The position numbers and the translations under genes were made by a program. This document shows positions 1,029-50,698 of a DNA stretch of 64,000 nucleotides, in pieces (position 1 is the stretch's first letter; each line of letters starts with the position of its first letter). The stretch comes from Gemmatimonadaceae bacterium (GTDB lineage: Bacteria > Gemmatimonadota > Gemmatimonadetes > Gemmatimonadales > Gemmatimonadaceae): NCBI GenBank assembly GCA_019745365.1, contig JAIETI010000018.1, positions 4,811 to 68,810 on the forward strand. Direction: 5' to 3'. The notes under the pieces are model-generated. The model was given only the letters and a program-made list of their open reading frames with translations. It was not told the DNA's origin and did no database searches.

Positions 1029-1766
<738 letters not shown>

Positions 1767-1838
1767 CAGGGGCGCGCCAGCGCGCCAGCCAACTATATTT
1801 GGACAGCCGTTTTCCACCCCCCTCTGAGGACGACCGCA

Positions 1839-2078
1839 ATGGCCGGACACGCCGATAAGGTGAAGGACATCATCGAGAAGGAGCTCGGAGTCGAGCGCGA
1901 CAAGATGACCGATGGCGCGAGCTTCATCGACGACCTGGGCGCGGACTCGCTCGACATCGTCGAGCTCGTGATGGAGTTCGAGAAGGAGTTCAACATCGAC
2001 ATCCCCGATGAGGATGCCGAGAAGCTCCGCACGGTCGGCGACGCGATCGCGTATCTGAACAGCAAGCTCGGCGGCTGA
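1839..2078 (+). CDS. acpP: acyl carrier protein
   Basis: 79 aa with the [16 protein letters not shown] phosphopantetheine attachment motif. Confidence 0.97.
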
Positions 2079-2080
2079 GC

Positions 2081-3322
2081 GTGCGTCGTCGGGTCGTCAT
2101 CACGGGGCTCGGCGCCGTCACCCCCATCGGCAACGATGTGGGGTCGGCGTGGGAGGCGCTGCTCGCCGGTACGTCGGGCGGGGCGCCGATCACGCACTTC
2201 GACGCCACCAACTTCAAGGTGAAGTTCGCCTGTGAGTTGAAGGGCTTCGATGTGACGCAGTACATGGATCGCAAGGAGGCGAAGCGGTCGGATCTGTACA
2301 CCCAGTACGCGATGGCGGCCTCGGTACAGGCGATGGCCGACGCCGGGTTGGCCTCGGGCGGCTACGACCCGAACGCGACCGGCGTGGTGATCGGGAGCGG
2401 GATCGGGGGGATCAACACCTTCGAGGAGCAGCACTCCAACCTCGTGAGCGTGGGTCCGAACCGGATCTCGCCCTTCTTCGTCCCGATGTTCATCGGCGAC
2501 ATCGCCGCGGGGGTCGTCTCGATGCGCTTCGGCGCGAAGGGGCCGAACTACGCCACGCAGTCGGCCTGCGCGACGAGCGGCCATGCGATCGGCGATGCCT
2601 TCCGCATGATCCAGTACGGCGACGCCGACGTCATGATCGCGGGCGGTTCCGAGGCAGCGGTGTGCCAGATGGCGATCGGTGGCTTCGCGAACATGCAGGC
2701 GCTCTCGGAGCGGAATGACTCGCCGGAGACCGCGTCGCGTCCGTTCGATGCGACCCGCGATGGCTTCGTGCTGGGCGAGGGCGCCGGTGTTGTGGTGCTG
2801 GAGACGCTGGAGCATGCGCAGGCACGCGGGGCTCGGATCTACGCCGAGCTCGTGGGCTACGGCGCCACCGGCGATGCGTATCACCTGACCGGGCAACCCG
2901 CCGATCATGAAGGACTGCAGCGCGCCATGCGGCGTGCGCTCCAGGATGGCGGGCTCGCGCCGAGCGACATCCAGTACGTCAATGCGCACGGCACGTCGAC
3001 GCCGCTCAACGATCCGAACGAGATTCATGCGATCAAGACGGTGTTCGGCAAGGATGCCACCGCCCTGAACGTGAGCTCCACCAAGAGCGCCACGGGGCAC
3101 ATGCTGGGCGCGGCGGGCGGCGTGGAGTTGATCTTCACGACGCTCGCGATGCAGCATTCGATCATCCCGCCGACGATCAACCTGCACTCGCCGGACCCGG
3201 AGTGCGATCTCGACTGCACCGCGCTGACGCCGGTGAAGCGAGAGGTGCGGGCGGCGATCTCGAACTCCTCCGGATTCGGCGGGCACAACGTCAGCATCGC
3301 CGTCACGCGCTTCAGCGCGTAG
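2081..3322 (+). CDS. fabF: 3-oxoacyl-ACP synthase II
   Basis: 413 aa with the ACATS active-site Cys, NAHGTSTP, and the GHNVS C-terminal motif. GTG start 2 nt after the acpP stop. Confidence 0.95.
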   Translation: MRRRVVITGLGAVTPIGNDVGSAWEALLAGTSGGAPITHFDATNFKVKFACELKGFDVTQYMDRKEAKRSDLYTQYAMAASVQAMADAGLASGGYDPNATGVVIGSGIGGINTFEEQHSNLVSVGPNRISPFFVPMFIGDIAAGVVSMRFGAKGPNYATQSACATSGHAIGDAFRMIQYGDADVMIAGGSEAAVCQMAIGGFANMQALSERNDSPETASRPFDATRDGFVLGEGAGVVVLETLEHAQARGARIYAELVGYGATGDAYHLTGQPADHEGLQRAMRRALQDGGLAPSDIQYVNAHGTSTPLNDPNEIHAIKTVFGKDATALNVSSTKSATGHMLGAAGGVELIFTTLAMQHSIIPPTINLHSPDPECDLDCTALTPVKREVRAAISNSSGFGGHNVSIAVTRFSA

Positions 3323-3334
3323 CGGGCAGCCGGC

Positions 3335-4510
3335 GTGGCACCGCAGCTCGATGTAGATCGAACCCGGATCGCCGATCCGGTGGTGCGGGCGATCGCGGAC
3401 AAAGTGGTGGCCGGGGTGCGGCTCGACCGCGCCGACGGACTCGCGCTCTTCCGTTCGAACGATCTCACGGGGATCGGCCTGCTCGCCGACGCGGTGAACC
3501 GCGCGCGCCACGGGCGCGTCGTCACCTTCGCGGCGAACCAGCACATCAATCCGACGAACGTCTGCGTGCTCCGGAAGACCTGCGTCTTCTGTGGATATGC
3601 GCGACTCCCAAAGGAAGCCGGCGCGTATCGGTATACGCTCGATCAGGTGCTCGCCGAGGCGGCGCACGCGGCGGACGGCCTCACGAAGGAGTTCCACATC
3701 GTGGGCGGCCTCGATATGCAGGCGGGGCTCGAGTACTACACGACGATGTTCCGCGCGCTCAAGGCGAACTTCCCGCACGTGCACATCAAGGCGCTGACCG
3801 CCGTCGAGATCGCGCATCTCGCGCGGATCGAGAAGATGAGCTGGCGCGACGTGCTGATCGCGCTCCGCGAGGCCGGGCTCGATACGATGCCGGGCGGCGG
3901 CGCGGAGACCTTCAGCGCCGCCGTGCGCGAGACCATCGCCAACAAGAAGCTCGCGGGCGCGGACTACATCGGCGTCCATCGGACCGCGCACGAGCTGGGG
4001 ATCCGCTCGAACTGCACGATGCTCTACGGGCATGTGGAGACGCTCGAGGATCGGATGGAGCACTTCGAGATGCTTCGCACGCTGCAGGACGAGACCGGAG
4101 GATTCCTCGCGTTCATCCCCCTCGCGTACCATCCCGACGACAACGCGCTGGGTGAGACGCTCGGTCGACAGGGGACCGCCACGAGCGGGGTGGATGACCT
4201 GAAGATGCTCGCGGTGGGGCGTCTCTTCCTCCACAACTTCGCGCATATCAAGACCCACTGGATCATGGTCACCACCGCGCTCTCGCAGATCGCGTTGAGC
4301 TACGGCGTGAATGACCTGGAAGGGACGGTGGTCCGCGAGAAGATCTACCATGCGGTCGGGGCGCACACGGCGCAGGCGATGTCGCTCGACGAGATCCTCA
4401 AGTTGATCCGCGGCGCAGGACGCGTTCCCGCCGAGCGTGATTCGTTCTATCAGGTGCTGCGGCGGTTCGATGACGCCCCTGTGCCCACCCCGGAGCCGGT
4501 GGGCGCGTGA
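3335..4510 (+). CDS. MqnE/MqnC-family radical SAM enzyme (futalosine menaquinone pathway); E versus C not resolved
   Basis: 391 aa with CofH/MqnE/MqnC-like layout (HINPTNVC...C..C, GGLD, PGGGAE, NCTMLYGH). Adjacent to an mqnA-like gene. The Cys triad is CX5CX2C, not canonical. Confidence 0.72.
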   Translation: MAPQLDVDRTRIADPVVRAIADKVVAGVRLDRADGLALFRSNDLTGIGLLADAVNRARHGRVVTFAANQHINPTNVCVLRKTCVFCGYARLPKEAGAYRYTLDQVLAEAAHAADGLTKEFHIVGGLDMQAGLEYYTTMFRALKANFPHVHIKALTAVEIAHLARIEKMSWRDVLIALREAGLDTMPGGGAETFSAAVRETIANKKLAGADYIGVHRTAHELGIRSNCTMLYGHVETLEDRMEHFEMLRTLQDETGGFLAFIPLAYHPDDNALGETLGRQGTATSGVDDLKMLAVGRLFLHNFAHIKTHWIMVTTALSQIALSYGVNDLEGTVVREKIYHAVGAHTAQAMSLDEILKLIRGAGRVPAERDSFYQVLRRFDDAPVPTPEPVGA

Positions 4511-5355
4511 TGCGCGTCGGTCGCATCCCGTATGTGAACTGCGCGCCGGTGTACGGCGCCATCGATCGGGGTGTGGTACCGCTGGCGGGGACCTTGGTGG
4601 ATGGCGTGCCGAGCGCGTTGAATCAGGCCATCGCCGGCGGGACGCTCGACGTCAGTGTGGTGAGCGCGGTGGAGTACGCGCGCGACCACGCGCGATACCT
4701 CCTCCTCCCCGACCTCGCGATCAGCTGCGACGGGGCGGTGAAGAGCGTGATGCTCTTCAGCACGCGTCCCGCGGAGTCGCTCGATGGGGAGCGCGTCCTG
4801 GTGAGTCGCTCGTCGATGACGAGCGTGGCGCTCCTCGAGCTGCTCTTCGAGCACGTGTGGCGCGCGCGGCCGGTGTTCGTCCCGGGCGACGCCGAGGCCG
4901 CGGATCTCGCGCAGGATGCCGAGCCCTGTGCGGCGCGGCTGGTGATCGGTGATGCGGCATTGATGCTCCGGCACCCGACGCACCCCGTTGCCGTCGCGCA
5001 TGGGCGGGCGTATCCGCATGTGTACGATCTCGGGAGCGAGTGGAAGGCGTGGACCGGACTGCCGTTCGTCTTCGCGGTCTGGGTCGCGCGGCGGGACATC
5101 CCGGTCGCCGATGCGCTCCGCGTGCACGGTGCCCTGATCGAGAGTCGTGACTGGGGACTGGCGCACATCGACACGCTCGCCGCTGACGCCGCGACGTCGT
5201 GCGGACTCCCCGCCAGGGTGCTCGCTGACTATCTCTCAGGTCTCGACTATCGGCTCGGCCTCCCGTACCTCGAGGGGCTGACCACCTTCTTTCGTCGTTT
5301 GGAGCTCGCCGGGCGAGTGCCGGCCGGGCGCCTCGAGTTCCTCCCCGCGGCCTGA
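4507..5355 (+). CDS. mqnA: MqnA-like chorismate dehydratase (menaquinone via futalosine)
   Basis: 282 aa. The N-terminus (M)RVGRIPYVNCAPVY is typical of the MqnA periplasmic-binding-protein-like fold. It is sandwiched between two Mqn radical SAM genes with a 4-nt stop/start overlap. Confidence 0.7.
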   Translation: MMRVGRIPYVNCAPVYGAIDRGVVPLAGTLVDGVPSALNQAIAGGTLDVSVVSAVEYARDHARYLLLPDLAISCDGAVKSVMLFSTRPAESLDGERVLVSRSSMTSVALLELLFEHVWRARPVFVPGDAEAADLAQDAEPCAARLVIGDAALMLRHPTHPVAVAHGRAYPHVYDLGSEWKAWTGLPFVFAVWVARRDIPVADALRVHGALIESRDWGLAHIDTLAADAATSCGLPARVLADYLSGLDYRLGLPYLEGLTTFFRRLELAGRVPAGRLEFLPAA

Positions 5356-6931: not shown

Positions 6932-7545
6932 TGGATGCCGTCGCCACCTGGCTGGCATCGATCCCCATCGAAGCGCTGTACCTCGTCCTCGGCGTCGCGT
7001 CGGTCATCGAAAACATCTTCCCGCCGGTGCCGGCGGACGTGTTCGTGGCCCTCGGCTCGTTCTTGGCCGCGCAGCGCGGGGCGGCGCTGCTGCCGACGGT
7101 GGCGTCGATCGTCATCGGGAGCACTATCGGGGCGCTCATCGTGTACTTCATCGCGCGACGCCTCGGCGCAGAGTGGCTGCATGCGCGGCTGAAGAAGGCC
7201 GGGATGGCGGGGTACGAGGAGAAGCTCACCGTCGCGTACGGGAACTACGGGACGCTCGCGCTCTTCGTGAGTCGCTTCGTGCCGGGGATCCGTGCGCTGG
7301 TGACGCCGGTCGCCGGCGCATTGCGCGTCCCGGTCGGACGATTCTTCGTCGTGATCCTTGTCGCGTCGTCGGTGTGGTACGGCGTCATCGGTGGGCTCGC
7401 CTACAAGGTGGGCACGGATTGGGAGGATGTGCGGACGCGCATCACGCACCTCGGACGCACCGTCAGCTTGGTCGCGGCGCTCGTCGCGGTGCTGCTCGCG
7501 CTCGGGTTCGTGATGCTCCGCCGTCGTCGCCGTGGACGCGACTGA
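6928..7545 (+). CDS. DedA/SNARE-associated family inner-membrane protein
   Basis: 205 aa, polytopic. Contains the IENIFPPVPADV and SRFVPGIRALV motifs typical of DedA. Confidence 0.85.
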   Translation: MMDAVATWLASIPIEALYLVLGVASVIENIFPPVPADVFVALGSFLAAQRGAALLPTVASIVIGSTIGALIVYFIARRLGAEWLHARLKKAGMAGYEEKLTVAYGNYGTLALFVSRFVPGIRALVTPVAGALRVPVGRFFVVILVASSVWYGVIGGLAYKVGTDWEDVRTRITHLGRTVSLVAALVAVLLALGFVMLRRRRRGRD

Positions 7546-8443
7546 GCGCGCGCCGCGCGCCTTCCTGATCGAGCGATTCGGCGAGTTCCTCGCGCTGGAG
7601 CAGGGGAGCAGTCCTCGCACGCTTGAGGCATATGGGTCGGACGTACGCCGTTTGGCTGAATGGGCGGCGTTGCACAGCATCGGGGCGCCGGAAGGACTCA
7701 CCTCGCGGCAGCTGCGTGATTTTCTGTATCACCTCAGTGACCTCGGCCTCGCGCCCGCGAGCATCGCGCGGTCGCTCTCCGCACTGCGGACCTACTGGCG
7801 CTTCCTGCTCGCCGAAGGGGTGAGTCGTGCCGATCCGACGGAGAAGCTCGAGGCACCGAAGCGCGGGCGGACGCTTCCCGAGGTGCTCACCGTCGACGAG
7901 GTAGGGCGGATCCTCGGCGCGATCACGCTCGACGAGCCCTTGGTCCTCCGCGATCGCGCGATGTTGGAGCTCGCGTACGGCTGTGGGTTGCGCGTGAGCG
8001 AGTGGATCGGCGTGGGGGTGCAGGACCTCGCGCTCGACGAGGGCGTCGTGCGCATCTTCGGGAAAGGGGGGAGGGAGCGGTTGGTGCCGGTCGGGCGTAC
8101 GGCGATCGGTGCGCTCGCGATGTACCTGCGCGAACTCCGGCCTCGGCTGGAGCACGGTGCAGGGGCTGGCCGCCTGTTCCTGAACGCGCGCGGGCGCCCG
8201 CTCTCGCGGATGGGTGCGTGGCTCCTGCTGCGGAAGTACGTTGAAGCGTCCGGGGTCACGAAGCACGTGACCCCGCACACGCTCCGTCACAGCTTCGCCA
8301 CCCACCTGCTCGAAGGGGGCGCCGATCTGCGGGCGGTGCAGGAGATGCTCGGACATGCCGATATCTCTACCACACAGATCTACACTCACGTCGACCGCGA
8401 GTACCTGCGCAGCGTGCATCGACAGTTCCACCCCCGCGGATGA
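7532..8443 (+). CDS. xerD: tyrosine site-specific recombinase, XerD-like (XerC versus XerD uncertain)
   Basis: 303 aa with LRDRAMLELAYGCGLRVSE, GKGGRERLVP, HTLRHSFATHLLEGGADLRAVQEMLGHADISTTQIYTHV and the C-terminal FHPRG. Collinear with E. coli XerD as I recall it. Confidence 0.82.
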   Translation: MDATERAPRAFLIERFGEFLALEQGSSPRTLEAYGSDVRRLAEWAALHSIGAPEGLTSRQLRDFLYHLSDLGLAPASIARSLSALRTYWRFLLAEGVSRADPTEKLEAPKRGRTLPEVLTVDEVGRILGAITLDEPLVLRDRAMLELAYGCGLRVSEWIGVGVQDLALDEGVVRIFGKGGRERLVPVGRTAIGALAMYLRELRPRLEHGAGAGRLFLNARGRPLSRMGAWLLLRKYVEASGVTKHVTPHTLRHSFATHLLEGGADLRAVQEMLGHADISTTQIYTHVDREYLRSVHRQFHPRG

Positions 8444-22427: not shown

Positions 22428-23362
22428 GGGACCGCGTGTGGCGGGTCGCCCAGTTCGCGGTGGTGGCACTCCTCCTCTGGTTCGTCGCGCAGGTATTGCG
22501 GCGCCAGTGGGGCGAGCTCGCGCCCATGCTGCAGGCGGTCACCGTCGACCGCGCCTCGCTCGCGTTGTCGGGTCTGCTCGTGCTCGCGAGCTACCTCGTC
22601 CTGATCGAGACCTGGCGTGACACGGTCTCGCGTTGGGGGGCGCAGCTCTCGTTCGGCGACGCGATGCGGATCTGGTTCGTCTCGAACCTCGGGCGCTATC
22701 TCCCGGGGAAGGTATGGCAGATCGGGGCGATGGGGGCGCTCGCCCAACGCGTCGGAGTGCCCGCCACCGCGGCGGTCGGTTCGTCGATCGTGATCGCGCT
22801 CGTGAACATCGTCGTCGGGGTCGCGGTCACGGTCGCGGCATCCCCGCAGATGCTCGCACTCGACACCCTCGGATGGAGCGTGATCGGCATGCTCACCGCC
22901 GGCGTGATCGCCCTGCCGTGGCTGCTTCCGGTCGGGATCGGCGTGGTGCGACGTCTCACAGGGCGCGAGGTCGCGCTCCCGGCACTTCCACCGCAGGTCA
23001 TCTGGCGCACCGCGGCCGGCTGCGCGTTGGCGTGGCTGCTCTACGGCGCTGCCTTTCGCGCGCTCGCCGTCGCTGTACTCCCCGCCGTGGGTGGCACCGC
23101 GCGCGACGCCACGGCAGTTTTCACCGGTTCGTATCTGGCCGGTTTCTTGGCACTTTTCGCTCCCGGTGGGGTGGGAGTCCGAGAAGTCGCGATGTACGCC
23201 GCACTCGAGCGCACCGGGATGGCGACGGGCGCGTCGGCGACGCTGCTCGTCGCCGCCTCGCGGGCGTGGCTCACGCTGGCAGAACTTCTTCCCGGCCTCC
23301 TCTTCCTCGGGTGGGCGCGTCGACAGACCCGAACGGCGTCTCCCTCTTCCATCGTCTCGTGA
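22424..23362 (+). CDS. UPF0104/LPG-synthase-TM-like ('flippase-like') integral membrane protein
   Basis: About 312 aa and polytopic. Contains the SNLGRYLPGKVWQIGAM motif characteristic of this family. ATGA overlap with the GT4 gene. Confidence 0.68.
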   Translation: MRDRVWRVAQFAVVALLLWFVAQVLRRQWGELAPMLQAVTVDRASLALSGLLVLASYLVLIETWRDTVSRWGAQLSFGDAMRIWFVSNLGRYLPGKVWQIGAMGALAQRVGVPATAAVGSSIVIALVNIVVGVAVTVAASPQMLALDTLGWSVIGMLTAGVIALPWLLPVGIGVVRRLTGREVALPALPPQVIWRTAAGCALAWLLYGAAFRALAVAVLPAVGGTARDATAVFTGSYLAGFLALFAPGGVGVREVAMYAALERTGMATGASATLLVAASRAWLTLAELLPGLLFLGWARRQTRTASPSSIVS

Positions 23363-25731
23363 CCGACTCTCCTCCTCCCGCGCGCGACGTCCGCTCGTTC
23401 TGGGCGTACCTCCTTCAGATCGTCGGCGCGCTGACGCTCGCCGCACCGGCGCTCGCTGGCCGCTTCCTGGTCAACCCGTGGAGCGACCAGTACATCGCGG
23501 GCTATGCCTTTCGCGAGTACGCGGCGGCGACACTCAAGGCCGCCGGCAGCTTCCCGCAGTGGAATCCGTATCTGTTCGGTGGGATGCCATACATCGCGGC
23601 GATGCATGGCGACATCTTCTATCCGACCTTCCTGCTGCGCATGATCCTCCCGACCGACGTCGCGATGACATGGGGGATGATCCTGCACCTGATGCTCGCT
23701 GGGATCTGCACGGTCGCGTTCCTCCGCGCCCAGGGGCTCGGCATGGCCGCCGCTGCGGTCGGCGGCATCGCGTACATGATGAGCGGGCAGGTCGCGTCGC
23801 TCGTCTCCCCAGGACACGATGGCAAGCTGTTCATCTCCGCGCTCCTCCCGCTGACCCTCCTCGTACTCACGTATGGGATGCGCGACGGAAAGCGCTGGGC
23901 GTGGGGCGTGCTCTCGCTCGTGATCGGACTCGGTGTGCTCACGCCACACCCGCAGCTCTTCCAGTATCTCTTGCTCGCGAGCGGTGGCTGGGCGCTCGTG
24001 CTCGCGTTCGCGCCGCTCGACGGCACGCCGCTCCCGCGCACCGTGGCGGTCCAACGGTTGGGATGGGCCCTGGGCGCTGTGCTCCTCGGCGGCTTGATCG
24101 GGGCGGTGCAGTTCGCTCCGGTGCGCGAATACGTGGCATGGTCGCCGCGCGCCGGTGGACGCGACTACGAGTACGCGACCTCCTTCTCGATGCCACCGGA
24201 GGAACTCATCTCCGCGTGGATCCCACAGTTCAGCGGGATCCTCGAGGCCTATTGGGGCCGCAACCCGCTCAAGTTGCACAGCGAGTACCTCGGCGTCGTC
24301 ACGCTCTTACTCGCGGGACTCGCGTTCGGTAGCACGACCGAGGTGCGTCAGCGCGGGCTTCGCCGTTTTGCGATCGGTGTCGGCGTCATCTCGCTGTTCT
24401 GGGCTCTCGGCGGGTACACGCCGTTCTACCAGTTGGTCTACGCGATCGTCCCTGGCGCGAAGTTCTTCCGTGCGCCGAGCACGATCTACTTCGTCACCAC
24501 CTTCGCGGTGGCGCTCCTCGCGGCCCTGGGCGTGCAGCGCGTGGCGGATGGCCGCGTGTCGATGCGTGCGGTGATGGTGTGGGGCGGGGTAGGGACGCTC
24601 TCGGCGGTCCTGGCGCTCACGGGGGCGCTGGGCAACCTCGCGGCATCGGTCGCGATCCCGCAGCGTCTCGATGCGGTCGATGCGAACCGCGCCGCGCTCG
24701 CGTTCGGCGGGTGGCGGGTGCTCGCCTTCGCCGCGCTCGCGACGTTCACGCTCTGGCAGACGGTGACGGCGCGGCTTCCACGCCACGCGGTGGTGTGGGC
24801 GTTCGCGCTCTTCATGATCGGCGATTCGTGGACGGTCGAGCGGCGGTACTGGCAGTTCTCCGAGCCCGCCGCGCGCATCTACGGCGATGACGACATCACT
24901 CGATACCTCGCCAAGCAGGACGCGCCAGGGCGGGTCATCGCCGCGCCGATCGCCGGGACGGGGGTGCCGCACGATCCGTTCTTGAGTGGCGATGCATTCA
25001 TGAGCCATCGTGTGCGCACGGTGCTCGGCTATCACGGCAATGAGATCGGCCGCTACCAGCGCCTCGGCAACAAGGACGCGGGATGGTCGCAGATCGCGAA
25101 CCCCGCGTTCTGGCAACTCGCGAACGCGCGATGGTTCTACACCGACAGCGATTCGCTCCCGATCCCGGGTGCGACGCGCGTGGTGGGGCCGATCCAGAAC
25201 GCGGCTGGCTCGCGCGTCTCGCTCTTCCAGCTGCCGGGCGCGAACCCGCTCGCGTGGGTGGCGCCGCAGATGGCGCGCTACCCCGACGACGCCGTGGCCC
25301 AAGCGGTGATGGCACCGAACTTCCCGACGTATTCGCTCGCGCTGTTCGATACGAGCGCGAAGATCGATGCTGGGCCCGCGGCGGCGATCCCCGCGCCGCT
25401 GGCGCTGCAGGTCACGACGACGGCGTACGCACCGGGCGCGATCTCGCTCGCGCTCAGCGCCCCCGCGCCGGCGGGCTCCGCGCTCGTCGTCTCCGAGAAC
25501 TACTTCCCGGGGTGGACGGCGACGGTTGATGGCAAGGTGACCGCGATCGATCGGGTGAATCTCTCGCTCATTGGGGTGCCGCTCCCGGCTGGCGCGCAGC
25601 GCGTGGAGCTGCGCTTCGCGGATCCGGCGTACGCGACGGGGAAGGTGATCACGCTGGTCGCACTCGCCGCGGCGATGCTGTTGGCGATCGCGGGTGTCGT
25701 GACCGAGCGGCGTCGAGGTGCCCATGCCTGA
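23359..25731 (+). CDS. large polytopic membrane protein, YfhO-like/GT-C-like putative periplasmic glycosyltransferase
   Basis: About 790 aa. An N-terminal multi-TM block (WNPYLFGGMPYIAAMHGDIFYPTFLL) is followed by a large soluble domain and a single C-terminal TM, which is the YfhO-type topology. GTG 23359 overlaps the upstream stop. Confidence 0.55.
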   Translation: MTDSPPPARDVRSFWAYLLQIVGALTLAAPALAGRFLVNPWSDQYIAGYAFREYAAATLKAAGSFPQWNPYLFGGMPYIAAMHGDIFYPTFLLRMILPTDVAMTWGMILHLMLAGICTVAFLRAQGLGMAAAAVGGIAYMMSGQVASLVSPGHDGKLFISALLPLTLLVLTYGMRDGKRWAWGVLSLVIGLGVLTPHPQLFQYLLLASGGWALVLAFAPLDGTPLPRTVAVQRLGWALGAVLLGGLIGAVQFAPVREYVAWSPRAGGRDYEYATSFSMPPEELISAWIPQFSGILEAYWGRNPLKLHSEYLGVVTLLLAGLAFGSTTEVRQRGLRRFAIGVGVISLFWALGGYTPFYQLVYAIVPGAKFFRAPSTIYFVTTFAVALLAALGVQRVADGRVSMRAVMVWGGVGTLSAVLALTGALGNLAASVAIPQRLDAVDANRAALAFGGWRVLAFAALATFTLWQTVTARLPRHAVVWAFALFMIGDSWTVERRYWQFSEPAARIYGDDDITRYLAKQDAPGRVIAAPIAGTGVPHDPFLSGDAFMSHRVRTVLGYHGNEIGRYQRLGNKDAGWSQIANPAFWQLANARWFYTDSDSLPIPGATRVVGPIQNAAGSRVSLFQLPGANPLAWVAPQMARYPDDAVAQAVMAPNFPTYSLALFDTSAKIDAGPAAAIPAPLALQVTTTAYAPGAISLALSAPAPAGSALVVSENYFPGWTATVDGKVTAIDRVNLSLIGVPLPAGAQRVELRFADPAYATGKVITLVALAAAMLLAIAGVVTERRRGAHA

Positions 25732-26449
25732 ACGCGCCCTGGTGATCGTCCCCACGTACAATGAAAAGGACAATATCCGGAACCTGATCTCTCAGGTGCT
25801 CGCGCAGGACGCACGCCTGGAGATCCTGGTCGTCGATGACAACTCGCCGGATGGGACCGGGGCGATCGTGCAGGAGCTCGCTGCGAGCGAGCCACGCGTC
25901 CATCTGCTTGCGCGCCCCGGGAAGAACGGGCTCGGGACGGCGTATCGCGATGGCTTTCGGTGGGCGCTCGCGCGCCCGGAGTACGAGCTGATCTTCGAGA
26001 TGGATGCGGATTTCAGCCACGATCCGGCGCATCTCCCCGAGTTCATCGCGGCGTCGCGCGAGGCGGACTTCGTGTTGGGATCGCGCTACCGTGATGGCAA
26101 GGTGACGGTGGTGAACTGGCCGATCAGTCGCCTTATACTCAGTTATACCGCGAACATCTACGCCCGCTGGGTGACGGGCGTCCGGCTCTGGGACGCGACG
26201 GGCGGCTTCAAGTGTTTCCACCGACGCGTGCTCGCGGCGATCGATCTCGACAAGGTCCGTTCGAACGGCTACGCCTTCCAGATCGAGATGAGCTTTCGCG
26301 CCATCCAGAAGGGGTTCACGGCCAAGGAGATCACGATCACCTTCACCGACCGCACGGAAGGCGAATCGAAGATGGCCAAGGGGATCGTCGGCGAGGCGAT
26401 CCTGATGGTCTGGTGGCTCCGCTGGTGGCAGCTGACCGGGCAACTCTAG
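25724..26449 (+). CDS. polyprenol/dolichol-phosphate mannose synthase-like GT2
   Basis: Contains LVIVPTYNEKDNI, VVDDNSPDGTG and the GGFKCF motifs of the Ppm1/DPM1 family. Start is ATG 25724 or GTG 25718, both overlapping the upstream gene. Confidence 0.85.
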   Translation: MPERALVIVPTYNEKDNIRNLISQVLAQDARLEILVVDDNSPDGTGAIVQELAASEPRVHLLARPGKNGLGTAYRDGFRWALARPEYELIFEMDADFSHDPAHLPEFIAASREADFVLGSRYRDGKVTVVNWPISRLILSYTANIYARWVTGVRLWDATGGFKCFHRRVLAAIDLDKVRSNGYAFQIEMSFRAIQKGFTAKEITITFTDRTEGESKMAKGIVGEAILMVWWLRWWQLTGQL

Positions 26450-26450
26450 G

Positions 26451-27281
26451 GTGATCGCCGCCGGTGCGCCGTTCTGGAAGATGTCGGGGTCGGGAAACGA
26501 CTTCGTCTTTTTTGACGCCCGGAACGGACTCGATCTCACCGCGTGGCCACCGGAGCGGATCCAAGCCATCTGCGCCGCCCACACCGGGGTCGGCGCCGAC
26601 GGGATCGTGCTGCTCACGACCGACGCGTCACTCCCGCTGCGGATCATCTACTTCAATCGGGATGGCAGTCGGGGCGAGCTCTGCGGGAACGCCTCGCTCT
26701 GTACGGTTCGCCTCGCCGCCGAACTCGGCATCCCCTTCGATGGCGGGGAGCTCCGCTTCGGTACCGATTCGGGGACGGTGACCGGCCGACTCCGGCCCGA
26801 CGATGGCCGTCCCGAGATCGATCTGGGGAGCATCTCGGGGGTCGACTTGACCTCGCCGGCAATCACTCGGCATCCGGAAGAGGCGCAGCTGGGGTTCGCG
26901 TCGGTTGGGGTTCCGCACCTGGTCGTCGTGGTCCCGGACGCCGAAACGGCAGAGCTCCCGGTCCGGGGCCCCGAACTTCGATACCATCTGTCGTTGACCG
27001 CCGGTGCCAACGTGAACTTCGTGAGCCGACGGCCTGAGGGCTGGAGGATCAGAACCTGGGAGCGCGGCGTCGAGGCCGAGACTTTGGCGTGCGGGACCGG
27101 CTGCTGCGCTTCCGCCGCCCTCCTCGCCGCCTGGGGGCTCGCCCCCGGGGAAGGGACCATCCTTCAGGTCGAATCAGGCCGAACGGTACGCGTCCGTCTC
27201 AGATCGACCCCCGACGGCATCGCGCCATCACTGTCAGGGGAGGGCCGTGTGGTTTACACCGGCCAACTAGCCGAACTCTAA
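26451..27281 (+). CDS. dapF: diaminopimelate epimerase
   Basis: 276 aa with FWKMSGSGNDFVFFD, the first catalytic Cys in CGNASLC and the second in ACGTGCCA. Confidence 0.94.
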   Translation: MIAAGAPFWKMSGSGNDFVFFDARNGLDLTAWPPERIQAICAAHTGVGADGIVLLTTDASLPLRIIYFNRDGSRGELCGNASLCTVRLAAELGIPFDGGELRFGTDSGTVTGRLRPDDGRPEIDLGSISGVDLTSPAITRHPEEAQLGFASVGVPHLVVVVPDAETAELPVRGPELRYHLSLTAGANVNFVSRRPEGWRIRTWERGVEAETLACGTGCCASAALLAAWGLAPGEGTILQVESGRTVRVRLRSTPDGIAPSLSGEGRVVYTGQLAEL

Positions 27282-27302
27282 GTCGGCGCCTCACCAGGGT
27301 AG

Positions 27303-27336
27303 TTCCTGTTTTTCCTGTCGTTCCTGTCTCTCCTGT
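27303..27336 (+). repeat. four tandem 9-bp units (T/C)TCCTGTnn, left of the dif-like site
   Basis: TTCCTGT begins at 27303, 27312 and 27321, and CTCCTGT at 27330, an exact 9-bp period. The stretch 27315-27336 is complementary to 27392-27413 at 20 of 22 positions. Confidence 0.9.
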
Positions 27337-27363
27337 GCACAACCCCCCCCTTTCCACATCCCG

Positions 27364-27391
27364 CCTTTACATAATACATATTATAGGCACT
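27364..27391 (-). other. dif: candidate chromosomal dif site (XerC/XerD recombination target)
   Basis: The minus strand reads AGTGCCTATAA-TATGTA-TTATGTAAAGG. From memory this is 20/28 identical to E. coli dif and 22/28 to B. subtilis dif, with the inner ATAA/TTATGT positions fully conserved. It is the only AT-rich patch in the window and lies in the convergent gap where gene orientation flips. Confidence 0.72.
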
Positions 27392-27420
27392 ACAGGAGGG
27401 ACAGGAAAGACAGAGGAGGT
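27392..27420 (-). repeat. three tandem 9-bp units ACAGGAnnn on + (TCCTGT on -), directly abutting the dif-like site
   Basis: ACAGGAGGG starts at 27392, ACAGGAAAG at 27401 and the degenerate ACAGAGGAG at 27410. Same 9-bp period as the left array, in inverted orientation. Confidence 0.85.
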
Positions 27421-27480
27421 GTGGCGGCACTATGGCGCCACACCCCCTATCGTTCTTGTGTGCTCTCGCGATCTCTAGTG

Positions 27481-27513
27481 AGATCTGAAGGGGTGGCGTA
27501 CCCCTTCAGATCT
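27481..27513 (-). terminator. perfect 13-bp stem / 7-nt loop hairpin, likely terminator of the TPR gene (possibly bidirectional)
   Basis: AGATCTGAAGGGG-tggcgta-CCCCTTCAGATCT lies 8 nt beyond the stop of the - strand gene that ends at 27522. There is no clear U-tract on either strand. Confidence 0.5.
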
Positions 27514-27521
27514 GGTGAGCG

Positions 27522-28151
27522 CTAGTTGGACTTTGCGGTGAGTTCGCCGAGGCGGACTCTCGCCTCGGCGGCCACCGACGACTCTTCGTTCGCGGCGAGG
27601 GCCGCCCAGATCTTCTCGGCTTCCGCCTTCTTGCCGGCGGCGACCAGCGCGCGGGCCTGCTCGGCCTTCATGTAGTCCCGGTCGCCCGAGAGCTCCGCCG
27701 CTTCGGCAGCCATGCCGTAGTGCTTCGCGGCCTCTTCGTGCTTCCCCTGATCCTGGTGCGCGGCGGCGATGAGGGCGTGAACGCCGGACTGGAAGTGCTT
27801 CGGGACCTTCGTCCCCTCAAGCGCCTTCAGGCCGTCGGCGTACTTCCCCTGATCGAAGAGCACCTGCGCGAGGAGCATCGACGCCTCGGCACCCCCAGAG
27901 GTGCCCGCGTAGCGGAGCGCGACCTTTCCAAGCTCCTTTTCGGCGAGCGCTGCGTTCCCCGCATCGAACGCCCGAGCGGCCTCGGCGAACGCCGCGTCGG
28001 CGCGATCGGCCTTGATCTGCGCCGAGCGATTCCAGAGGTAGCCCGCCCCGCCGCCCGCCACGAGCACGATGGCAGCGATGCTGAGGTTCCGGCTGTTCTG
28101 GCGGAAGAAGTCGACCCAGCGGTCGGTGTCGAGCGAGCTATCCTGAGACAT
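27522..28151 (-). CDS. membrane-anchored TPR protein (YfgM-like)
   Basis: 209 aa. One N-terminal TM (LSIAAIVLVAGGGAGYLW) is followed by Ala-rich TPR-like helices. Size and layout resemble YfgM. Confidence 0.6.
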   Translation of the reverse strand: MSQDSSLDTDRWVDFFRQNSRNLSIAAIVLVAGGGAGYLWNRSAQIKADRADAAFAEAARAFDAGNAALAEKELGKVALRYAGTSGGAEASMLLAQVLFDQGKYADGLKALEGTKVPKHFQSGVHALIAAAHQDQGKHEEAAKHYGMAAEAAELSGDRDYMKAEQARALVAAGKKAEAEKIWAALAANEESSVAAEARVRLGELTAKSN

Positions 28152-28229
28152 TGAACGATTCGGATTTCGAGGAGAACTGGATGAGACCTCGAAAGCTAAA
28201 CACCGGAATGCCGCGGGTGTAGCGCCCCA

Positions 28230-28556
28230 TTACCGGAGGCGGCCGTACATCAGGTCGAGGAGCTCGTCGTGCATCCGGCTTGCCTCTGCCGGCCCCGAGC
28301 TGATCGCCTGATGGGCACAGTGCCGCAGGTGGTTCCGCATCAGTTCGCGTCCGACGGCGCGGAGCGCCTGTTGGATGGAGGCGATCTGGGTGATCACGTC
28401 GGCGCAGTAGCGCTCTTCCTCGACCATACGATGGACCCCCCGCACCTGCCCTTCGATGCGCTTGAGCCGAGCGAGCGCCTTGGACTTGGTCGCGGGCTCG
28501 ACATGCGCGGCGTGCCGAACAGCCGAGGCACGCTTCGGGTGGCGGGCGCTGGTCAT
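28230..28556 (-). CDS. csoR: CsoR/RcnR-family metal-sensing transcriptional repressor
   Basis: 108 aa with [36 protein letters not shown] and a later HC pair, which together give the Cys/His/Cys copper ligand pattern. Overlaps the copA stop. Confidence 0.9.
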
Positions 28557-30739
28557 CGGAGTCTCAGGCGTTGGAGGCGGAGGGAGTTCACCACGACGCT
28601 CACCGAACTGAGCGCCATCGCCGCGCTCGCAACGCTGGGCGAGAGCGCGAGTCCGGTGCTTGGGAGGAGCACCCCTGCGGCGAGCGGGATCCCGACGACG
28701 TTGTAGCCGAAGGCCCAGCCGAGGTTCTGTCGCATCACACGCATCGCCGCCCGGGCGATCTGGAGCGCGTGCACGGCGCGCACGGGATCGCTCCGCAGGA
28801 GGGCGATGTCGGCGGCGTCGATGGCGATGTCACTCCCACTCCCCATCGCGATCCCGACATCGGCCGCGGCGAGCGCAGGCGCATCATTGATCCCATCGCC
28901 GACCATCGCCACGCGGTGCCCCTCCGCTTGCCAGGCCCGGAGTGCCGCCACCTTCCCTTCTGGGCGGAGATCGGCTTCGACTCGGCGGATTCCGACACGC
29001 GCCGCGAGCGCCTCAGCGACCACGCGGCGGTCCCCGCTCAGGAGCACGACGTCGACCGCCATCGCGCGCGCCGCGCGCACGGCTTCAGTGCTCTCAGCGC
29101 GCACGGTGTCTTCGAGGACGAACGTGCCGGCATGTGCGCCCGCGACGGCCACATGAACGACCGTGTCCGGCGTCGCCGCATCGTCGGGGATGACCACGCC
29201 TCGGCCGGTGAGGAACGCGGACGAACCGAGTGCGATGGCCACGCCGTCCACCATCCCACTCACCCCCTGCCCCGGTCGTGCCCGCACGAGCGAGGCCTCG
29301 CGCGTCTCGGCATTCTCCTCTGCCCCATACGCGGCGATGGCTTTCGCGAGCGGATGCTCGGAGCGACGTGCCAGCGCGGTCGCCTGCGCGAGCACCACCG
29401 CTCGTTCGTGCGCGGCCGCCGCGGTGAACCCGTTGACCGTCGGCGCGCCCATCGTGAGGGTGCCGGTCTTGTCGAACGCGATCAGGTCGATCGTGGCCGC
29501 CCGCTGCAGGGGGATGGCTCCGCGGAAGAGGATCCCCGCCTGTGCTGCACGACCCGTGGCGACCATCACGGCGGCAGGAACCGCCAGCCCCATGGCACAC
29601 GGACAGGCGATGATCAGCACGGCGATCATCGACCGCAGCCCCGTGGCCCAGTCGTGTGCGATGCCCCCCCAGGCCACGAGCGTGAGCAGCGCGATCGCTG
29701 CCACCGCAGGGACGAATGACGCCGAGACGCGGTCCGCGAGTTCCTGGATCGGTGCCCGTGCACCTTGGGCATCACGGACCGCAGCGATGATGCGCGAGAG
29801 GACCGTCGCCTCGCCGACGCGCACCACGCGCAGGCGCAGCGCGCCGTCGACCGCGACGCTCCCACCGACCACCGCGTCGCCGGGCCGCTTCAGTACGGGG
29901 ATCGGTTCGCCGGTCAGCATCGCCTCGTCCACCCCGGACTCGCCCTCGAGAACGACGGCGTCAACCGGGATGCTCTCGCCGGGCACGACGCGGACGACAT
30001 CGTCGATGCGAATCTGCGAGAGCGCGACACGCTGCTCGACCCCGTCGCGCTCCACGAGCGCCTCGGACGGACGCAACGCGCCCAAGCGCGCGATGGCCGA
30101 GGTCGCCGCGCCGCGCGCCCGCGCGTCGAGCGCGCGCCCGAGCTGCACGAATCCAAGGATAAAGAGGATCGCCTCGGCGTAGTTGCTGTCCATCGCCATC
30201 ATCCCGCGGCGATCCACCGCGAGCGAGAACGCGGACGCGAGCCACGCCGCGCTGGTCCCCAACGCGATGAGCACGTTCATGTCGGCGCCGCCGTGCCGCA
30301 GCGCATTCCACGCCCGACGGTAGAATCCGCGCCCCGAGGTCAGCATCGCGGCGCTCGCGAGGGCGAGCAGGATCCAGGGCGTGCTGGGCGCGTGCATCGC
30401 AGTCATCGCGAGCCCCATCGCCACCGCGCCAGCGCTGAGCAGGACGATCGCGTCACGTCGCGCCGTGCGGAACTCCGAGGTGCCGTCATCCACGGACGCG
30501 TCGTCAGGGATGAGCGCCGACGCGCCGTATCCTGCGGCTTCTACTGCGGCCACCAGCGTCGCGACCGCAGGCGGCTGGGCCGTGGGATGCACCCGCGCTT
30601 CGTGCATCAGCAGGTTGACCTCTGCACTCGCGACCCCCGAAACGCGTCGCAACGCCTGCGTGACGTGCGACTGACAGGCCGCGCAGGTCATCCCGGAGAT
30701 CTGGAGCACGATCGGACGTTCCGCCGGTACCGTTGTCAT
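28553..30739 (-). CDS. copA: copper-translocating P1B-type ATPase
   Basis: 728 aa with an N-terminal HMA domain ([11 protein letters not shown]), the CPC motif (CPCAMGLA), DKTGTLT, and the [10 protein letters not shown] hinge. Confidence 0.95.
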
Positions 30740-49693: not shown

Positions 49694-50698
49694 TCAGGGT
49701 CGAGTTGGACGTCCGAGGCGATGCAGCAGGAGGTCGAGCGCGTCGGCCCCCTCGGTCACCTCGAGAGACTGGGAAAGATACCACGCCTGCGGGGCGGAGG
49801 CAGGCCACCGGTGGACGAGCTTGACGGCGTCCTTCTCGGTGCATACCACCCGACGCCCCGCGGCCTCCTGCAGGATCGACGCGACGTCGGCATCGGTGTA
49901 TTCGTGGTGATCGCGGAAGGCGCGTGCCGAGACCACCGCTCCCGCGGCCCGCAGTTGCGCCGCGAACGCGTTGGGATCGCCGATCGCGCTCACCGCGTAC
50001 AGTGTCTCCCCCTGGATCGTCGACAGCGGGAGCGTCTCACTCCCGCCGACCGCGACCAACGCGCGCGGCGAGAGCATCGCCACGACGATGGGGAGGGTCG
50101 GGGCCACCCGTTGCACGGCGACGCGCACCTCGCGGAGTTGCCCGAAGGTCGCGGCTTTCCGGGTGATGACCACGAGGTGTGCTCGGCGCAGCGCACCGAG
50201 TCCCTCGCGCCAGGGGCCGACCGGGAGTGGCCAGCGCACTCGCTGCCACGCGTCGGCGCTGATGAGCACGATGTCTGCCTCGCGGTCGGCACGCCGATGC
50301 TGGAAACCATCATCGAGGATCGCGATCGTCGCCCCGGACGCTGCCGCGCGCTCAGCCGAAGCCACCCGGTCCGCTCCCGGCACCACGAGGATCCCCGCCC
50401 GCTGATAGAGCGCGACTTCATCCGTGCCGTAGCCGCGCAAGAGCACCGCCGGCGTCGCTCCCTGCGCACGCAGTCGCTCGGAGATCCAACGCGAGACGGG
50501 TGTCTTGCCTGTTCCACCCACCGAGAGATTCCCAACGCTCACGGAGGGGATCGCCAGCCGCAGCGAGCGCCGCCACTCGAGATCGTAGAGCGCGTTCCGT
50601 AGACCGCGCGCGGCGATGAAGAGCAGCGCGAAGGGGGAGAGCAGGATCCGCGCGAGCTGCGGCGCGGCACCCTTGCCGTACCAGAGCCACGCGATCAC
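49694..50698 (-). CDS. lpxK: tetraacyldisaccharide 4'-kinase
   Basis: 334 aa with the SVGNLSVGGTGKTP P-loop and LRGYG and DDGFQH motifs. Confidence 0.9.
   Translation of the reverse strand: MIAWLWYGKGAAPQLARILLSPFALLFIAARGLRNALYDLEWRRSLRLAIPSVSVGNLSVGGTGKTPVSRWISERLRAQGATPAVLLRGYGTDEVALYQRAGILVVPGADRVASAERAAASGATIAILDDGFQHRRADREADIVLISADAWQRVRWPLPVGPWREGLGALRRAHLVVITRKAATFGQLREVRVAVQRVAPTLPIVVAMLSPRALVAVGGSETLPLSTIQGETLYAVSAIGDPNAFAAQLRAAGAVVSARAFRDHHEYTDADVASILQEAAGRRVVCTEKDAVKLVHRWPASAPQAWYLSQSLEVTEGADALDLLLHRLGRPTRP

Follow-up and report, generated by a model that had tools for sequence, protein, structure and literature searches.

Is the short AT-rich patch between two convergent genes of a Gemmatimonadaceae bacterium its chromosomal dif, the site at which XerC and XerD would act? 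The patch lies at positions 27364-27391 of a 64-kb stretch of contig JAIETI010000018.1, called the window below; coordinates are window positions, and statements on uniqueness, skew and gene content hold within it. An initial annotation had proposed a dif site here and had suggested a dif-profile search, co-localisation with the GC-skew extremum and conservation at the syntenic position in relatives as checks. We conclude that 27364-27391 is almost certainly the chromosomal dif of this bacterium. The direct basis is its sequence, its uniqueness in the window, its position at the terminus, polar words converging on it, a xerD gene and phylum-wide synteny. Profile, skew, synteny and uniqueness in the window all favour the interpretation first given. 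The site is an ordinary dif, and dif was already predicted for the phylum in 2011 (Kono et al., PMC3025954).

The core and its parts were assigned by position-by-position alignment with the dif sites of E. coli, B. subtilis and Gemmatimonas aurantiaca.

27364-27391, minus strand: dif core of 28 bp, AGTGCCTATAA-TATGTA-TTATGTAAAGG (contiguous: AGTGCCTATAATATGTATTATGTAAAGG), unique in the window and the best match to the three references
27381-27391, minus strand: presumed XerC-binding arm AGTGCCTATAA
27375-27380, minus strand: 6-bp central region TATGTA, the predicted strand-exchange site
27364-27374, minus strand: presumed XerD-binding arm TTATGTAAAGG, facing dapF, an orientation shared with 26 of 26 loci

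Rereading the window returned exactly the minus-strand sequence claimed at the outset, and the identities given with it were right on recomputation: 20/28 to E. coli dif (8/11 in each arm, 4/6 in the centre) and 22/28 to B. subtilis dif (8/11 and 9/11 in the arms, 5/6 in the centre). Identity to the dif predicted for G. aurantiaca T-27 (AATGCGTATAATACATGTTATGTAAACT; Kono et al. 2011, suppl. 2, PMC3025954) was 21/28, with 9/11 in each arm. On either strand of the window, 27364-27391 was the top-scoring position for each of the three references and exceeded the best identities found over 300 Markov-1 random windows (19, 18 and 18, respectively). Even at up to three mismatches the window has no second copy of the 28-mer, and 100 shuffles gave an expectation of none; dispersed copies, which would have pointed to a repeat family, are absent from the window. 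The perfect inverted repeat ATAATA-CA-TATTAT described earlier is present at 27371-27384, and the patch is AT-rich as stated, the most AT-rich 28-mers of this ~68% G+C window falling in the candidate site. The XerD-arm word TTATGTAAA is fixed by the pattern with which relatives were searched; its identity in B. subtilis and G. aurantiaca dif does not depend on that pattern. The XerC arm is the less conserved one, and relatives mostly carry TATGCGTATAA there.

Position in the chromosome was examined through base skew and gene direction. G-C skew changes from +0.046 on the left side to -0.054 on the right, and the cumulative G-C maximum over the 64-kb window lies at 27095, 270 bp from the site, within a plateau of 26009-28920. 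The site thus co-localises with the skew extremum within the window. Genes left of the site are mostly on the plus strand and those on the right mostly on the minus strand. The switch from plus to minus skew, together with the converging genes, indicates a terminus and not an origin. The gap is convergent and sits at the polarity flip, as the initial annotation had claimed, with two genes converging on it:

26451-27281, plus strand: dapF, running toward dif as its conserved XerD-side neighbour
27522-28151, minus strand: a TPR_21 (YfgM-like) gene, running toward dif as its conserved XerC-side neighbour

Housekeeping genes flank the site on the left (CTP synthase, KdsD-like, LptA/LptB-like, RpoN, glycosyltransferases, DapF) and on the right (CsoR, CopA, GpsA, Der, UvrC, MurJ, BshC, LpxK, BamA, Clp ATPase). 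Two hairpins, both lacking a T-run, were also seen between the TPR_21 gene and dif: a perfect 14-bp hairpin just 3' of the gene (27481-27513) and a 16-bp hairpin between that one and dif (27414-27448).

Polar words gave a further test of orientation. The FtsK-orienting polar word (KOPS) of E. coli is GGGNAGGG (PMC3130261). Its copies in the window number 6:0 (plus:minus) left of the site and 1:11 right of it, so that 17 of 18 point at dif; the sole exception is a plus-strand copy at 50090. The copies closest to the site are:

27148-27155, plus strand: GGGNAGGG, second-last on the left side, pointing at dif
27237-27244, plus strand: GGGNAGGG, last on the left side, 120 bp from dif
29265-29272, minus strand: GGGNAGGG, first on the right side, pointing back at dif

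Between the last left copies (27148 and 27237, plus) and the first right copy (29265, minus) the polarity therefore flips across the site. Among 31 other loci, counted as top:bottom strand with dif oriented from XerC arm to XerD arm, the word occurs 27:0 on the XerC side and 8:33 on the XerD side, 60 of 68 copies pointing toward dif. A de novo search of the same loci for strand-skewed 8-mers placed GCGGGGAA (29:0, leading:lagging) and GGGAAGGG (27:1) among the top words, the latter an instance of GGGNAGGG. Control words of the same composition were mixed (for example GGGAGGAG, 2:10), and this inconsistency indicates that the GGGNAGGG skew does not simply reflect G richness. The polarity flip agrees with dif and is independent support for it, beyond the checks initially suggested. 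Two other words are skewed as well: the leading strand of the window has 25 copies of GGTGCTCG and the lagging strand none, and GGTGCTC stands at 47:2; the corresponding ratios in related loci are 44:10 and 74:18. Codon or gene-strand bias, and not a signal, may explain their skew.

The window also encodes a candidate recombinase for the site:

7532-8443, plus strand: xerD, a tyrosine recombinase of 303 aa with Pfam Phage_integrase and SAM-like N-terminal domains, 19 kb from the site

Its product scored 345.3 bits against the TIGR02225 XerD equivalog model, passing the cut-off of 329.6, and 311.3 bits against the XerC model, below the cut-off of 335.15. What had been described as a XerD-like recombinase 20 kb away is hence a XerD equivalog above the curated cut-off at a distance of 19 kb. 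No second Xer-like gene was found in the 64-kb window.

Relatives were taken from a scan of one genome per species with the pattern TGCNTATAANNNNNNTTATGTAAA, which returned at least 119 loci; counts given here hold among the matches listed, which include about 30 loci labelled Gemmatimonadota and two labelled otherwise with the same gene order. A profile hidden Markov model (HMM) built from 31 other Gemmatimonadota sites, with the window left out, matched 27366-27390 on the minus strand (E=1.5e-6, 24.7 bits). The next match in the window had E=28, so the profile search yields a single significant match, and this is the flagged site. Most listed Gemmatimonadota loci share one gene order, in which YfhO-like, GT2 and dapF genes lead into dif and TPR_21 faces it from the other side. 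Wherever these neighbours were found, dapF was on the XerD-arm side and transcribed toward dif (26/26 listed loci), and TPR_21 was on the XerC side (16/16). Conservation at the syntenic dapF/TPR_21 position thus holds, and with the same arm orientation. Each listed Gemmatimonadota locus has one match, and no Gemmatimonadota isolate appears twice among the matches listed.

The three loci with the closest DapF relatives (L135, L136 and L138, fetched separately) carry dif just downstream of dapF, and the central hexamer TATGTA is common to the window, L135 and L136. Sites near-identical to G. aurantiaca dif were found in the Gemmatimonas-type loci L119, L051 and L068. The nearest homologues of the window DapF are only about 56-60% identical. 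After a 100% identical protein from a metagenome-assembled genome (MAG), the next-best homologue is only ~57% identical, which points to a sparsely sampled lineage. The window locus is present in two Logan assemblies, whose contigs are the same sequence.

Several further observations came from the scan. The whole gene order from the YfhO-like gene to TPR_21 (window 22633-28151) is kept across Gemmatimonadaceae/Gemmatimonadales though DapF is only ~45-58% identical; such stability is unusual for a terminus region. Two loci, L084 (labelled Steroidobacteraceae) and L094 (unidentified bacterium), show the Gemmatimonadota-type dapF-dif order and the box pair described below, and are probably misbinned or mislabelled. 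Peribacillus huizhouensis gave two matches to the dif pattern in one genome, on two contigs with near-identical flanks (L042 and L101), which could mean that this genome has a further dif-like site or that an element was duplicated. The 28-mer TATGCGTATAATATATATTATGTAAAGT is shared by contigs of unrelated taxa (L043, L046, L056 and L081) with mostly AT-rich local flanks; L092 holds a one-base variant ending in AAAAT, and L046 and L081 share flanking sequence too. Its presence in unrelated taxa could reflect misbinning or a mobile element.

The flanks of dif in the relatives were then compared. Twenty-nine listed Gemmatimonadota loci were anchored on dif without gaps and scored by column, with positions counted from the first base of the 28-mer. 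On the XerD side, +36 to +43 reads GTGGAAAA and +45 to +53 reads TGTGGAGAA; no conservation was seen in the XerC-side flank of these 29 loci. Local realignment gave 50 boxes with the consensus TGTGG(A/G)DAA (reverse complement TTH(T/C)CCACA), in which G2 and G4 are invariant (50/50). Of 32 related loci, 30 have at least one box of 9 bits or more, as one or two 9-mers, no further than 100 bp from dif. In 29 loci the boxes are on the XerD side, 5-6 and/or 15-16 bp past the XerD end of the 28-mer, where they read away from dif at a spacing fixed within 1 bp. The exceptions are L071, with boxes on the XerC side, and L047, which has none. A XerD-side box with at most one mismatch was present in 22 of the 31 Gemmatimonadota-labelled loci (window included; 29 have a scorable XerD flank) versus 1 of 89 dif-pattern loci labelled as other phyla, among the matches listed.

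Boxes also occur in two loci in which no dapF was found. In Longimicrobium L091 (class Longimicrobiia) they hold the usual offsets and the XerD-side neighbour is a HEAT-repeat gene; L008 has a GT2 cluster on the XerC side. The boxes accordingly travel with the XerD arm and not with dapF. A separate feature of L091 (Longimicrobium sp., 1370-5184) is that its Ku and LigD end-joining genes start right beside the XerC arm. Overall, these alignments make it very probable that in this phylum a protein-binding module of tandem DnaA-box-like 9-mers goes with the XerD side of dif.

Which protein might bind there? Read on the other strand, the dominant box word TGTGGAGAA becomes TTCTCCACA, which departs from the E. 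coli DnaA box TTATCCACA at a single position. A 9-mer with no more than two mismatches to TTATCCACA counts as a DnaA box, and in actinomycetes the 'perfect' high-GC form is TT(G/C)TCCACA (PMC4285127). TTCTCCACA fits this 'perfect' form, and the consensus of the 50 boxes in the relatives agrees with a DnaA box; its least conserved positions are DnaA-box positions 3 and 9. The module runs from a better distal box through 1 bp, a weaker proximal box and a spacer of 6-7 bp to AT-rich DNA. This order agrees with the box-pair grammar of the origin basal unwinding system (BUS; PMC8287927). DnaA is the best sequence-based lead for the box binder, but only a lead. If the box consensus at Gemmatimonadota oriC is TTCTCCACA or TTTTCCACA, the DnaA reading gains; if the words there are different, it loses. 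With respect to the AT-rich DNA, the boxes presumably have the same orientation as box R1 has with respect to the unwinding element of E. coli oriC. An alternative binder, by analogy with psi, would be a regulator of the ArcA/OmpR type that recognizes direct repeats with a 10-bp period. The flanking 9-mers were also considered as KOPS of the phylum and rejected: TGTGGANAA is rare, with two copies in 271 kb of flanks (both strands), and beside dif it reads away from the site, whereas GGGNAGGG is both frequent and skewed. In our literature search no report of DnaA boxes at dif turned up, and the motif beside Gemmatimonadota dif is apparently undescribed so far.

The conserved 9-mers could instead be RNA-level elements, namely part of a conserved intrinsic dapF terminator (its 3' arm and U-tract) that would stop transcription from entering dif. 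The minimum-energy fold of dapF-sense RNA pairs five or more of the nine box-2 bases with an upstream segment in 17 of 29 loci, and a U-rich stretch contributed by box 1 follows, as in L005, where a 9-bp stem precedes CUUUUUCC. Yet it is the sequence that is conserved and not the pairing, given G2 and G4 invariant in every box and a box 1 that repeats the motif of box 2. Spacing between box and dif stays fixed within 1 bp, fold z-scores against shuffled upstream arms are mostly weak (-3.7 to +2.0), and the boxes are present in two loci where no dapF was found, L091 (at the same offsets) and L008. We consider a terminator an unlikely explanation of the boxes.

In the window itself, the DnaA-box-like module is reduced and other repeats surround dif:

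27350-27358, minus strand: degenerate phylum box TGTGGAAAG (reverse complement CTTTCCACA), 9.0 bits, offset +5 from the XerD arm
27303-27336, plus strand: four direct (T)TCCTGT copies with a 9-bp period on the XerD side (TTCCTGT at 27303, 27312 and 27321; TCCTGT at 27331)
27392-27419, minus strand: three inverted copies of the 9-bp TCCTGT unit abutting the XerC arm (plus strand ACAGGAGGG ACAGGAAAG ACAGAGGAGG)

The box was scored with a weight matrix built from 50 boxes of other loci; as CTTTCCACA it has two mismatches to the DnaA box TTATCCACA. Box 2, expected at +15/+16, is missing, and its place is taken by a run of eight C (27343-27350), followed by the palindrome TGTGCACA at 27334-27341. 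Paired with each other, the two arrays make up an imperfect inverted repeat of ~30 bp whose loop contains the box remnant and dif. Within it, a 22-nt inverted repeat (I1) in the 27392-27419 array is 91% complementary to 27315-27336, and folding widens the pairing to about 27286-27338 versus 27390-27421. The plus-strand fold of 27282-27425 has a dG of -55.6 kcal/mol (z -4.6), and the minus-strand fold of 27282-27521 has z -5.8.

These arrays appear particular to this locus. TCCTGT arrays were found neither elsewhere in the window nor at the other dif loci examined, the dif flanks of the nearest DapF relatives carry ordinary boxes and not arrays, and a metagenome scan with the window-type pattern returned 13 unrelated sites without arrays. 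An Rfam scan of 26900-27900 gave only sub-threshold microRNA-hairpin noise, attributable to the inverted repeat around dif. Duplex energies between the two flanks were compared across loci, a weak test because the shuffle control preserves purine/pyrimidine asymmetry; only L011 stood out, through a short CCTGGT/ACCAGG pair. The TCCTGT arrays, if functional, may bind another accessory protein or fold as an RNA or DNA hairpin; they may also stem from a recent inverted duplication. Readings of the repeats as CsrA-type (CAGGA), MraZ-type (GTGGG-N5) or response-regulator sites were considered, and the literature search gave nothing usable on them.

Taken together, these flanks suggest a tentative model, which we regard as possible rather than probable. 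Gemmatimonadota dif would be a composite site, with a pair of high-affinity-type DnaA boxes 5-7 bp from the XerD arm and the AT-rich dif core as counterpart of an unwinding element. DnaA, or another binder of these direct repeats, would act directly on Xer recombination or mark the terminus for the replication cycle. In the window lineage, the pair would have decayed to one weak box, replaced or supplemented by the TCCTGT arrays on both sides of dif, to which a different accessory protein may bind. The flanking module and the arrays are known from sequence analysis alone, and the module is weakest in this very window.

The same flanks bear on whether 27364-27391 could be a secondary dif-like site brought in by a mobile element, either a Xer attachment junction or a plasmid-type Xer site, with the primary dif elsewhere. 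Plasmid sites of this kind, cer and psi, combine a Xer core with ~180 bp of accessory DNA on the XerC side, which binds PepA together with ArgR or ArcA. The ~30-bp inverted repeat of 9-bp arrays that frames the site superficially resembles terminal repeats, and the conserved flanking motifs of the relatives recall the accessory sequences at cer and psi. Those motifs, however, span ~20 bp and lie on the XerD side in 29 of 30 loci, not over ~180 bp on the XerC side. Integrated elements leave two dif-like sites, whereas no second one exists in the 64 kb, and the window has no further 9-bp arrays. Around the site lie housekeeping genes in an order conserved phylum-wide, and the site sits at both the skew switch and the KOPS switch. 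A mobile-element origin is therefore very improbable.

Scarcely credible is a merely coincidental likeness to dif in an AT-rich palindrome that serves only as intergenic punctuation, be it a bidirectional terminator or a promoter-like patch: the site does lie between convergent genes, is AT-rich, contains TATAAT and has one weak terminator-like hairpin with a T-run nearby (27295-27318), but its identity to three dif references exceeds all 300 random windows, the profile E-value is 1.5e-6, scans found no sigma-70-like promoter at the site and no Rfam match above noise, KOPS polarity flips there, and it is the 28-mer and not the surrounding sequence that is conserved across the phylum, with DapF only ~45-58% identical.

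Some findings do weigh against assigning dif to this site. Uniqueness and the skew extremum are local results, holding for 64 kb of the genome. Outer arm bases deviate from the phylum majority (AGTGCC versus TATGCG; AAAGG versus AAACT), and the dif-adjacent box module of the relatives is degenerate here. xerC and ftsK were looked for among the window genes and neither is present. Since nearly all genes run in the direction of replication, gene-strand bias confounds the KOPS skew, and the control with words of the same composition removes this only partly.

With 27364-27391 as dif, dimer resolution would follow the E. coli and B. subtilis model. XerC would bind AGTGCCTATAA and XerD TTATGTAAAGG, flanking the centre TATGTA. 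For a chromosome dimer caught at the division septum, FtsK would load on GGGNAGGG-type words that point at the site from both replichores and, on the presumed FtsK dependence, pump DNA until it meets XerCD-dif. FtsK would then activate XerD for the first pair of strand exchanges across TATGTA, and XerC, acting second in the expected order, would resolve the Holliday junction to give two monomers.

As dif, the site pins down where replication terminates on this MAG contig and how both replichores are oriented. It also indicates that the XerCD-dif-FtsK/KOPS logic, down to the E. coli word GGGNAGGG, holds in a deep-branching and poorly studied phylum. Chromosomal dif sites are generally held to need no accessory DNA. 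If functional, the phylum-wide DnaA-box-type motif on the XerD side (29/30 loci) would add a new layer of control to dif, one that might tie initiation proteins to termination and dimer resolution.

Among known systems, E. coli dif shares with the window site a length of 28 bp, the 11-6-11 organization, the inner bases ATAA and TTATG, the skew switch, an encoded XerD equivalog and converging GGGNAGGG words; it differs in the outer arm bases and at two central positions. We know of no conserved flanking motif described for E. coli dif, whereas the relatives of the window carry one, almost always on the XerD side. B. subtilis dif, served by CodV and RipX, is the best single-reference match (22/28) with an identical XerD-arm word TTATGTAAA. 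That organism uses SpoIIIE/SftA and a different polar word, while in the window an E. coli-type word is skewed. Closest by phylum is G. aurantiaca dif, whose centre differs at 3 of 6 positions; relative to it the window has C for G at position 6 and GG for CT at positions 27-28. For G. aurantiaca, Kono et al. reported the 28-mer and nothing beyond it, and they found Firmicutes-type profiles to work best in Gemmatimonadota (PMC3025954).

The flanking module invites comparison with two other kinds of site. Like cer and psi, the dif sites of the relatives join a Xer core to a conserved flank that resembles binding sites of another protein. psi uses the response regulator ArcA, which binds direct repeats. 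We rejected a plasmid-type Xer site, since the XerC side is not conserved in 29 of these loci and the context in the window is chromosomal and housekeeping. Unlike cer and psi, they have a flank of ~20 bp placed 5-7 bp from the XerD arm, and they are chromosomal and lie at the terminus. The other comparison is with the DnaA boxes and BUS of oriC: the boxes of the relatives differ from these in lying at the terminus, where the adjoining AT-rich DNA is the Xer core and not an unwinding element.

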